Below, piece by piece: positions 3,899-6,325 of a DNA stretch of 32,118 nt. Location of the stretch: the IMG/VR virus record IMGVR_UViG_641736163_000005. One strand, written 5' to 3'. Every line of letters starts with the position of its first letter. Within the stretch, counting starts at the first letter, position 1. The notes under the pieces are model-generated. The model had not been told where the DNA came from and ran no database searches. It saw nothing but the letters and a program-made list of their open reading frames with translations. The position numbers and the translations under genes are program-made. Source of the DNA: a virus (lineage: Duplodnaviria; Heunggongvirae; Uroviricota; Caudoviricetes).

Positions 3899-6325
3899 TC
3901 AGCTGATACTGATGCCTGCGGTGGCTTTCTTCATCACCACAACCAGCAAATCGCTGATACTTGCTGTGGGATACCAGTCATTTACCAGCCATGCTGACAC
4001 CGAAAACTCCAGCGTCATGTGACCGTGACCGGCAGGCATATCAATAACGCCACTGTAAATCAGCGTATTATCCAGCGCGGTACGGTTATAAATTTCAGCA
4101 CCGTTTTTCCGCACTATCAGACGGCATGAGGAGTAAATATCAGTATGCTCTCTCTCATGTTTAGCGCCGCTGAATGCCACCGCCGGAATAACAATCTGCC
4201 GGTCAAACGGCTGATCGTCATAAACCCTGACGGTAATGGTCCCTGATGGCCACCGTTCCGGTGCACGGGAGTCCCGGGGGAAAGCTTTGCCCACTGTTTT
4301 AACGAGATCGCCTTCAATCTGGTTCGCGGACAGTTTTCCCAGAACCCGACAGTTCTCGTTAATCGTGACGTTGTTGAGCGTCCCGGAGTTCGCATTCACA
4401 CTGCCACTGATATCCGCATTTTTAGCGGTCAGCTTTCCGTCTGATGTCAGGGAAAATGCCGGAGGATTGCCGCCACTGGTAATGGTGGGAGCCGTCAGAT
4501 ATTTCAGGAACACTTCATTCATGAATATCTGATCGCCCTGACCAACAAACATCGGCTTTGTGTTGCCATTCGCAGGATTAATCATCGCAATCCTGTCTGC
4601 CGCCAGCAGCACCTGACTCTGCATGCCGTCAGAGGTGTTCTCAATACCGGCACCGATACCCGCAATATAAAGGCGTCCGTCCTGCATCTGCTGCAGCTTC
4701 ACTGCCCACATGCTGTTCAGGTTATTATTTGTATCAACCTGAACCTTCTGTATCTGCTGGATCGCTGCACTCTGGTCTTCCAGTTTCTTATTGACGGTCT
4801 GTGTGATTTCATTGCTGACATCCGTTATGGACGTCCTGATTTCAGTCAGGTCAGGCGCAAGCTGACCGTTATCAATCTGCGTCCACAGCTCCTGAGCCAG
4901 ATGGGTTTTCCCTATCTCGCCTTTGAAAAAATCCAGATAGCCTGATGCATCATCACTCGGCTGACCGACAGCCTCCACGAATGCCGATTTGCCAACGGTG
5001 TTCACACTGCGAACGTAAAAATAATAATCATGGCCCGGCTTAATATTGCTACTGGCAGCTATCCAGTACAGCGCCGTGCCAAGATAGCGGGCTGTGGTTT
5101 CAACCTGCCTGATATCCGCTATCCGCTTTTCCGAGAACCAGAACTCAAACTGTACCGTCGGATCATAAACCGCAAGATGCGGCGTGGCAGTTATCTGAAA
5201 ATAGCCCGGCGTCAGCTCAATCCGCGACGGCGCTGCCGGTGCGGCAATCCGGAACGATACCGACGCCGGATCACCCTGCTGCTCCCAGGCATTTACCGCC
5301 CGGACTGTCAGCCTGTAGTTCCCCAGCGCCAGTTGCGTGAAGCGGTATGTGGTTTCCGTCGTCCGGGCCGTGCTGACCAGCCGCTCACTGCCGTCGTCCG
5401 CTGTTACGGTCAGACGGAGCAGGAAGCTCACGCCCTTCACCACCTTCGGTGTGTCCCATCGCGCCAGCACCTGATATTCCCCGCTGTCTGCAGTGACTTC
5501 GGCGGTCAGGTGCTGCACCGCTGGCGGCGTGACACCGTTCACCGTGCCACTCTGTTCGCCGTCAAAGTGCGCCCCGTTATCCACGATGGCCTCTTTTTCC
5601 GGCACATGCTGCACGGCGGTGATGGCATACGTGCCGTCGTCGTTCTCACGGATACTCACGCAGCGGAACAGTCGCTGGCGCAGCGTCGGCAGCTTCAGCC
5701 CCCATACGCTGTATTCAGCAACACCGTCAGGAACACGGCTCACTTTTACCTTCACGCCGTCGGTGACGGACTGAACCTCCACGCTGACCGGATTGCCACT
5801 TCCGTCAACCAGGCTTATCAGCGTGGTACCGGAGGATGGCAGCGTGATTTCACGGTCGAGCGTCAGCGTCCGGGTCTGGCTGTTCACCGCCAGCACACGA
5901 CCACCGGTGCTGATACCGGCATAGTCATCATCGCAGATTTCAATGACATCGCCCGGTACATGGCGAAGCCCTTCGGCACCCACGCTGAAGTCCACGGTCT
6001 GCGTTTCCAGCAGTTCTGTTTTAATCAGCCACAGCCCAGCGCGGTGCGCCTGCCCCCGGCTGGTACAGCCAAAGGCATCCATCTTCGTGACGTTACGACC
6101 GTAACGGAGAATGGCCTGCGGATTTTTAACCGTAGCCCTTTTCAGCCTGGCCCTTTCCTTTACCAGTTTCCGGCGTACCTTTGTCTCACGGGCAACCTGT
6201 GACGCAGACTGCGATATCGCGGATGAAGCAACGCGGTTAATGGCCATTGCTGACGCACCGGGCACCGCCGTTTTGCTGATACGGCCGAGGTTTTCAACGG
6301 CCTGCTCAAGACCTTTTATGGCCAT
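3899..6325 (-). pseudogene. J: in-frame fusion of the first ~70 codons of minor tail gene Z to the C-terminal ~740 codons of tail tip protein J
   Basis: N-terminal 70 aa ([23 protein letters not shown]...[10 protein letters not shown]) match recalled lambda gpZ; remainder ([23 protein letters not shown]... to end) matches gpJ. Only one ORF lies between FII and lom, so U,V,G,T,H,M,L,K,I are absent. Junction near 6110. Confidence 0.8.

Follow-up and report, generated by a model that had tools for sequence, protein, structure and literature searches.

An in-frame Z–J chimera in a lambda-type prophage of Escherichia albertii TW07627, a probable scar of prophage decay

The DNA analysed here (the window, a stretch of 32,118 nucleotides) matches, at 100% identity, scaffold CH991859.1 in GCA_000155105.1, the assembly of Escherichia albertii TW07627. 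When the window was extended with the flanking scaffold, lambda att cores (GCTTTTTTATACTAA) were found on both sides, with ybhB/bioA next to the J end of the prophage and ybhC next to its N end; the location is the classical att-lambda site, occupied in the classical orientation. Both att cores are retained, and so are both arms, P and P'. From one core to the other the prophage measures 33,330 bp, about 3.5 kb of it IS DNA, or approximately 69% of the 48.5 kb of lambda. Efficient cos-to-cos packaging in lambda heads has a lower limit of roughly 78% of the lambda length, and by this limit, which is taken from lambda biology, the 33.3-kb prophage is too short to be packaged efficiently. The gene order is of the lambda type, the att cores sit at a known attachment site, and genes for excision, regulation and morphogenesis have been lost or disrupted, all of which characterise a defective lambdoid prophage. 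The att-lambda site in E. albertii is tandemly occupied. A search near ybhB for a third att core that could bound a second remnant returned none with three or fewer mismatches. The features of the locus are collected in Table 1.

Table 1. Features of the TW07627 prophage in window coordinates (position 1 is the first nucleotide of the window).
Feature	Position	Strand	Remarks
att cores	-1078 and 32252 (32252-32266)		lambda core
T3SS effector NleG	887-1468	-	distal cargo (887..3831)
Tail fibre C-terminal ORF	1583-1852	-	distal cargo
Side tail fibre	1854-3167	-	distal cargo; collagen-like repeats
lom	3232-3831	-	distal cargo
Z'-'J fusion ORF	3899..6325	-	808 aa; ATG start; gpZ aa 1-71 + gpJ aa 423 to C-terminus
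Deletion junction	6112..6120	-	9-nt microhomology CGCAGGCCA; lambda 8182-8190 (Z) + 16763-16771 (J)
FII head-tail joining protein	6337..6690	-	117 aa, intact
FI DNA-packaging protein	6702..7100	-	132 aa, intact
E major capsid protein	7142..8167	-	341 aa, intact
D head decoration protein	8224..8556	-	110 aa, intact
C/Nu3 prohead protease + scaffold	8566..9885	-	439 aa, intact
B portal protein	9866..11467	-	533 aa, intact
W head-tail adaptor	11464..11670	-	68 aa, intact
A terminase large subunit	11667..13592	-	641 aa, intact
Nu1 terminase small subunit	13567..14112	-	181 aa, intact
cosN	14290..14301	-	12-nt cohesive end GGGCGGCGACCT on the - strand, same as lambda
Lysis cassette	15693..16860	-	holin 16654-16860, lysozyme 16157-16654, Rz 15693-16160
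Candidate embedded Rz1	15734-15940		within Rz
nanS-p-like esterase, C-terminal part	17308-18426		split by IS1
IS1	18413..19179	+	767 bp; 9-10 bp target duplication TGCTGCAGGC; in nanS-p-like esterase gene
nanS-p-like esterase, N-terminal part	19212-20039		split by IS1
Three tRNA genes	20564-20794		
Q late antiterminator	20886..21374	-	162 aa, intact ORF
O, P and ren	23970..25854	-	O 24955-25854, P 24257-24958, ren 23970-24260; lambda lengths
IS100 (IS21 family)	26261..28214	+	1954 bp; 5-bp target duplication GTCGG; inside nutR boxB
cro	28249-28476	-	immunity region (28249..29262)
cI-like repressor	28555-29262	+	immunity region (28249..29262)
N antiterminator	30469..30777	+	102 aa; unbroken P22-type nutL boxA + boxB upstream
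Second IS1	31366..32118	+	runs to 32133, past the window end; no target duplication

At the centre of the locus lies the Z'-'J fusion ORF, whose product is recorded at NCBI as EDS91071.1 under the name 'host specificity protein J [Escherichia albertii TW07627]'. Its Pfam match to Minor_tail_Z (PF06763) spans residues 3-77 and covers only profile positions 1-75 of 190; a full-length gpZ domain (about 190 residues) is not present, and the Z sequence ends at nucleotide 214 of 579. Beyond it the domains follow in the order Phage-tail_3, Ig_J, Ig_J_second, Phage_Tail_Tip and Ig_GpJ_C. The Phage-tail_3 match begins only at profile position 85, in the distal part of the domain, and the remaining four profiles are covered in full with E-values of 5.5e-31 or better. 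No Pfam match to FNIII-A_GpJ, which is present in intact relatives, was obtained in the fusion, and the N-terminal hub of gpJ (FNIII-A_GpJ plus the first part of Phage-tail_3; lambda residues 1-422) is thus missing. The C-terminal receptor-binding domains of gpJ are in place: a PDB search aligned fusion residues 65-484 with lambda gpJ residues 416-835 (8iyk chain J, an alignment that starts at J residue 416), and the PDB matches reach the C-terminus. At the nucleotide level, fusion positions 1-214 correspond to Z 1-214, with 99% identity to Z of E. coli E2865, and positions 196-2427 correspond to J 1249-3480, with 96.7% identity to J of phage PhiR55_1. The in-frame join of Z and J proposed in the first-pass annotation is therefore confirmed by Pfam, by the nucleotide matches and by the PDB alignment, and the N-terminal stretch that it had put at about 70 gpZ residues is Z-derived in the nucleotide comparison and comprises residues 1-71. 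The fusion retains the Z start codon and ribosome-binding site, 11 nt past the FII stop codon. The receptor-binding end of J in the TW07627 prophage has diverged from that of lambda.

The junction was mapped against Z of E. coli E2865, J of PhiR55_1, nine intact relatives with an identical FII protein, and lambda. The first-pass annotation had recommended an alignment to lambda Z and J with an eye to microhomology; the Z and J matches overlap in the nine nucleotides CGCAGGCCA, an exact direct repeat at the crossover within a wider patch that agrees at 16 of 19 positions. The two copies occupy Z codons 69-72 and J codons 420-423 in identical codon phase in lambda, and a base-level check of six of the nine intact relatives found the repeat in both their Z and their J genes. 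The join is in frame because the repeat sits in the same codon phase in both genes, an outcome with a prior chance of about one in three. With 746 pairs of 9-mer direct repeats across the Z..J interval of lambda, the site of the deletion is in itself unremarkable. The deleted interval corresponds to lambda 8191-16771, or 8,581 bp (8,582-8,987 bp when measured against the nine intact relatives), and is smaller than the 11-12 kb initially proposed. The list of missing genes was right, as the lambda coordinates bear out: the rest of Z, all of U, V, G, T, H, M, L, K and I, and the 5' 1,267 nt of J are absent. No tail-shaft module lies anywhere in the whole interval between the two att cores, and the same prophage thus has no intact tail module elsewhere.

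The genes on either side of the deletion have fared better. Upstream in the late operon, the window from 14301 to 6112 aligns with lambda 1-8190 at 98.1% identity and free of gaps, and the ORFs from Nu1 to FII have exactly the lambda lengths, contain no internal stops and encode proteins of 91.7-99.5% identity. The cosQ and cosB flanks share 95-98% identity with lambda. The holin is of the phage-21 type according to Pfam, and the holin, endolysin and Rz ORFs are intact. The head and packaging genes from Nu1 to FII, cos, Q and the lysis genes had been called intact from the outset, and this holds: all of the ORFs are open and cosN is that of lambda. On the far side, the distal cargo from lom to nleG was kept after the deletion.

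The regulatory, replication and integration regions tell a different story, that of insertion sequences. The IS1 copy in the nanS-p-like esterase gene, which it splits in two, is located between Q and the holin gene, i.e. in the late-operon leader. The tRNA genes downstream of Q are all that an Rfam scan at gathering thresholds detected. O, P and ren share 95.5% DNA identity with lambda. The IS100 assignment is based on istA/istB and on Pfam matches to rve plus HTH and to IstB_IS21, and the element has the features of a simple insertion; its limits and the GTCGG duplication were derived from a comparison with a prophage in CP070281.2 that shares the immunity type and has an unbroken sequence at this site. 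IS100 has landed between cro and cII, within the nutR boxB hairpin (ACCGC-CGACAAC-GCGGT, in the sequence ACCGCCGACAACGCGGT), which follows boxA (CGCTCTTTA). This hairpin forms in the reference sequence but in neither half in TW07627, and nutL is unbroken; the nut boxB sequences of this prophage we take to be P22-like. From lambda biology, loss of nutR should block N-modified transcription from pR, and with IS100 in the nutR boxB, N should therefore fail to turn on O, P and Q from this promoter. Their expression should drop further with the 2 kb of IS RNA, untranslated and antisense, that the insertion adds. The immunity region is 99.9% identical to that of the prophage in assembly CP070281.2, and cII, cro, the cI-like repressor and N are all open reading frames. 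Neither Pfam nor PHROGs assigned a function to the low-GC ORFs between cI and N or to the 149-aa ORF that follows N. In a related prophage of the same immunity type the interval beyond this ORF carries cIII, kil, gam, bet, exo, xis and int. In TW07627 the outer side of the second IS1 instead adjoins lambda 27724-27856, consisting of the core, the P' arm and the last 14 int codons, and the genes from cIII through int, which make up the rest of the pL operon past the 149-aa ORF, have therefore been deleted. Both IS1 copies agree with the expected length of about 768 bp and encode insA and insB, and only the copy at 18413-19179 is flanked by a target duplication; the lack of one at the second copy fits an adjacent deletion. 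The three IS elements and the loss of int and xis had gone unmentioned in the first-pass annotation.

The chimera is rare. Among approximately 15 billion proteins the fusion protein stands alone in its 90%-identity cluster, a singleton with records on two contigs. A megablast search with a 401-nt probe, at 80% or more probe coverage, detected the junction in none of 5,426 complete E. coli genomes, and an exact degenerate 29-mer across the join had no match in the GTDB species representatives or the JGI metagenomes. In every one of the nine other places listed for the identical FII protein, the full Z-U-V-G-T-H-M-L-K-I-J series is present. The TW07627 junction is presumably a private and recent event. 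Deletions of the same block have nonetheless taken place elsewhere in otherwise lambda-like remnants: Z' adjoins 'J in a prophage of E. coli EC0026B, Z adjoins 'J in one of E. coli VE-V10-F, and E adjoins I-J in one of E. coli E1620. Their breakpoints differ from that of TW07627 and none has the same junction. The junction fragments in EC0026B and VE-V10-F are entered in RefSeq as partial pseudogenes, with the exception of the VE-V10-F Z, which is a normal CDS. These independent deletions in other strains identify the loss of the tail-shaft block as a recurrent form of prophage decay.

How, then, does the element compare with known systems? From cos through Nu1-FII to the first 214 nt of Z it is collinear with lambda (NC_001416), and the att core, the P and P' arms, the 3' end of int and the att-lambda site itself are likewise of the lambda type. 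In contrast, the immunity region, N and the nut sites, Q and the lysis genes belong to other types, three IS elements are present and the segment from int through cIII is absent. The closest likeness is to the defective lambdoid prophages such as the Sp elements of E. coli O157 Sakai (Asadulghani et al. 2009, PMC2669165), with which it shares the lambda gene order and a chromosomal att site, a T3SS effector cargo beyond the tail fibre genes (NleG in TW07627), and inactivation by deletions together with IS insertions that hit the modules for integration, regulation and morphogenesis. Unlike the Sakai Sp prophages, the TW07627 element resides in E. albertii, and its head region is nearly that of lambda (98.1%). 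The likeness to capsid-forming PICIs, satellites with capsid and packaging genes of their own that rely on the tails of a helper, is superficial and lies in the presence of capsid and terminase genes and the absence of tail genes. Membership of this class was considered and rejected: only the last 14 int codons remain and there is accordingly no integrase; the regulation and replication genes (cI, cro, cII, N, O, P, Q) are phage-type and not satellite-type; and the tail-less architecture is unconserved, being a singleton on two contigs with a junction absent elsewhere in the collections searched. In addition, heads made by the TW07627 element would be full-size lambda heads, and three IS insertions set it apart. 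The element has descended recently from a complete phage and belongs to no lineage of satellites.

The fusion ORF is thus very probably a scar of prophage decay in an IS-riddled lambda-type remnant of E. albertii TW07627. A lambda-type prophage would have inserted at att-lambda, between ybhC and ybhB-bioA, and 8.58 kb would have been lost between the two copies of CGCAGGCCA by RecA-independent short-homology (illegitimate) recombination or by replication slippage, the same-phase copies yielding the in-frame Z(1-71)-J(423-end) product. Lacking most of Z and the 422 residues that form the hub of J, the fusion protein should neither form a tail nor nucleate a tail tip. The deletion would be one of at least four independent lesions, alongside IS100 in the nutR boxB, IS1 in the late leader, and the second IS1 with the cIII-int deletion; it is because the same prophage bears these three further lesions that the fusion gene is best read as ordinary prophage decay. 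Taken together, the four lesions would leave a prophage that cannot excise itself, is too short to be packaged and can probably not be induced. That the head, terminase and lysis ORFs are still intact would most likely reflect the recency of decay and not a retained function, and selection may act to retain the repressor and immunity region as well as cargo such as lom and nleG. There is a counterpoint to this: head and packaging ORFs that are intact and 92-99.5% identical to those of lambda are also what a module still in use looks like, and the same is true of the intact Q, O, P, N, cI, cos and lysis genes.

It is this counterpoint that gives some substance to the earlier suggestion that the element is more than debris, namely a helper-dependent packaging unit that, upon induction, fills lambda heads which then remain tailless or borrow tails from a co-resident lambdoid phage. 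Nothing is broken in the nine head and packaging ORFs from Nu1 to FII, in cos or in the lysis genes, FII and W would provide the surface on which a tail docks, and with both att cores and both arms in place, excision by the Int and Xis of a lambda-specific helper would be conceivable. Polymerase modified by Q might pass the IS1 in the late leader, and O, P and Q might be expressed to some degree by transcription directed outward from IS100. There are precedents as well, in satellites that build their own capsids and take the tails of others, and in lambdoid prophages: defective prophages of O157 Sakai have already been reported to be excised, packaged and transferred with the help of co-resident prophages, i.e. 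through prophage-prophage interaction (PMC2669165). For the TW07627 element the proposal is not supported and we regard it as improbable. Int and xis are absent, IS100 has destroyed the nutR boxB so that O, P and Q expression should fail, IS1 separates Q from the late genes, the length of 33.3 kb lies under the packaging limit of lambda, the junction is strain-specific and unconserved, and the element shows none of the hallmarks of a PICI. A helper that mobilised it would have to provide Int/Xis and tails in trans, and probably Q as well, and the size problem would remain.

A more elaborate version, to which we attach a very low probability, has the remnant activated in trans by a co-resident lambda-type phage that supplies Q, Int/Xis and tails; an alternative has the Z-J protein acting as a receptor-binding decoy. 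In a remnant so activated, its own terminase would cut at cos, and packaging would proceed in one direction past Z'-'J, lom, the tail fibre genes and nleG and on into the bio-side chromosome, making this a cos-phage analogue of lateral transduction. The classical 'docL' particles can be likened to such unidirectional cos packaging. If true, the trans-activated remnant would spread effector genes and thereby bear on the movement of genes of the nleG type.

Less credible still is the co-option of the fusion protein, be it as a receptor-binding fragment, soluble or released from the periplasm, that blocks superinfection or as a dominant-negative J that poisons the tail assembly of rival lambdoid phages. 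The 808 codons are open, they begin with the translation start of Z, and the C-terminal Ig, tail-tip-fibre and receptor-binding domains are complete, all of which would fit such a role. Against this, the late operon is silent in a lysogen and can probably not be switched on in TW07627, no signal peptide or promoter of its own was noticed for the fusion, the protein is a singleton from one strain, and its in-frame state, a roughly one-in-three outcome, is accounted for by the phase of the repeat. An assembly artefact, in which similar lambdoid prophages were collapsed in a draft genome, is just as implausible: TW07627 is indeed a draft scaffold, nearly identical lambdoid prophages occur several at a time in pathogenic E. 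albertii and E. coli, and each query returned thousands of partial matches, but a second assembly (GCA_002965745.1) has this junction too, internal to a contig of 14.7 kb that matches at 100% identity over 12.5 kb, and the 9 nt shared by Z and J are far too few to mislead an assembler.

Decay of a once complete prophage is thus the reading with which the locus is best described, and the TW07627 locus is an ordinary, strain-specific decaying prophage of a well-known kind. Nothing in the analysis suggests that nleG is moved by mobilisation in trans. The significance of the finding beyond annotation is small. EDS91071.1, the 'host specificity protein J', is a Z'-'J chimera whose annotation should read pseudogene or fusion, and the TW07627 prophage is to be scored as defective. 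The notion of an element that is more than debris is unsupported, given that int and xis are lost, the nutR boxB is split, IS1 occupies the late leader and 33.3 kb remain. What the locus does offer is a clean example of an in-frame chimera formed across short homology combined with IS-driven erosion of a lambda-type prophage, including a hit in the nutR boxB.

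The IS100 element between cro and cII is inserted exactly within the boxB hairpin of nutR and is flanked by a 5-bp target duplication (GTCGG, with junctions at 26256-26260 and 28215-28219), so that the nutR boxA (CGCTCTTTA, ~28233-28241, minus strand) now lies 1.95 kb away from the distal half of boxB. The nutL site upstream of N is intact. The IS1 copy at the right end of the window lacks a target duplication. In a stretch that continues past the window to position 32266, it directly adjoins the final 14 codons of an int gene of lambda type, together with the P' arm and att core, an arrangement which indicates that the genes from cIII through int were removed by an IS1-associated deletion. 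The other IS1 copy interrupts a nanS-p-like esterase gene (domains DUF1737, SASA and DUF6645) in the leader of the late operon and is bordered by a target duplication of 9-10 bp. It is 1 nt shorter than the right-end copy, and its insB ORF encodes 160 aa versus 167 aa.

Features of the prophage and its left flank (window coordinates; negative values lie left of the window start)
Feature	Position	Remarks
126-aa ORF	306-686	Unknown; downstream of tail fibre genes
nleG	887-1468	T3SS effector gene; downstream of tail fibre genes
Antisense ORF, 314 aa	1533-2477 (+)	
Collagen-repeat side tail fibre gene	1854-3167 (-)	
Receptor-binding end of J part	3899-4700	
nanS-p-like esterase gene	17308-20039	
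tRNA genes	20564-20794	Directly downstream of Q; three by Rfam, two of them by ARAGORN (Gly-TCC, Asn-GTT)
IS100	26261-28214	
Low-GC region	29300-29840	
Right-end IS1	31366-32118	
Left flank	-1064 to ~-4170	Flanking sequence L001 ~17390-20500; P' arm/int 3' end, hydrolase gene fragments, PipA-family gene, then ybhB

The nleG gene and the 126-aa ORF occupy the usual effector cargo slot of EHEC/EPEC-type lambdoid prophages, and a tRNA trio just past Q is typical of Stx-like lambdoid phages. The long ORF antisense to the side tail fibre gene is without a family match and probably owes its open frame to the gene's GC-rich repeats (61% GC, strong AT skew). Between cI and N, where lambda has rexAB, is a stretch of low GC content (~40%) with two overlapping ORFs, one of 174 aa on the minus strand and one of 120 aa on the plus strand. 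Neither has a Pfam match; the sole match is a weak one to a PHROG of unknown function, and the stretch could represent a moron or exclusion gene.

Outside the left att core lie a lambda P' arm and ~300 nt of the int 3' end, with 87% identity to lambda 27739-28112. The left flank resembles what is left of a second, older element of lambda type that sits in tandem at att-lambda; a search near ybhB, allowing up to 3 mismatches, gave no third att core.

The receptor-binding end of the J part of the Z'-'J fusion ORF shows 77% identity to lambda and then no DNA match at all, and its top match among solved structures is chain 'A8 gpJ 713' (9wca) rather than lambda gpJ. The ancestral phage therefore probably used a receptor different from that of lambda.
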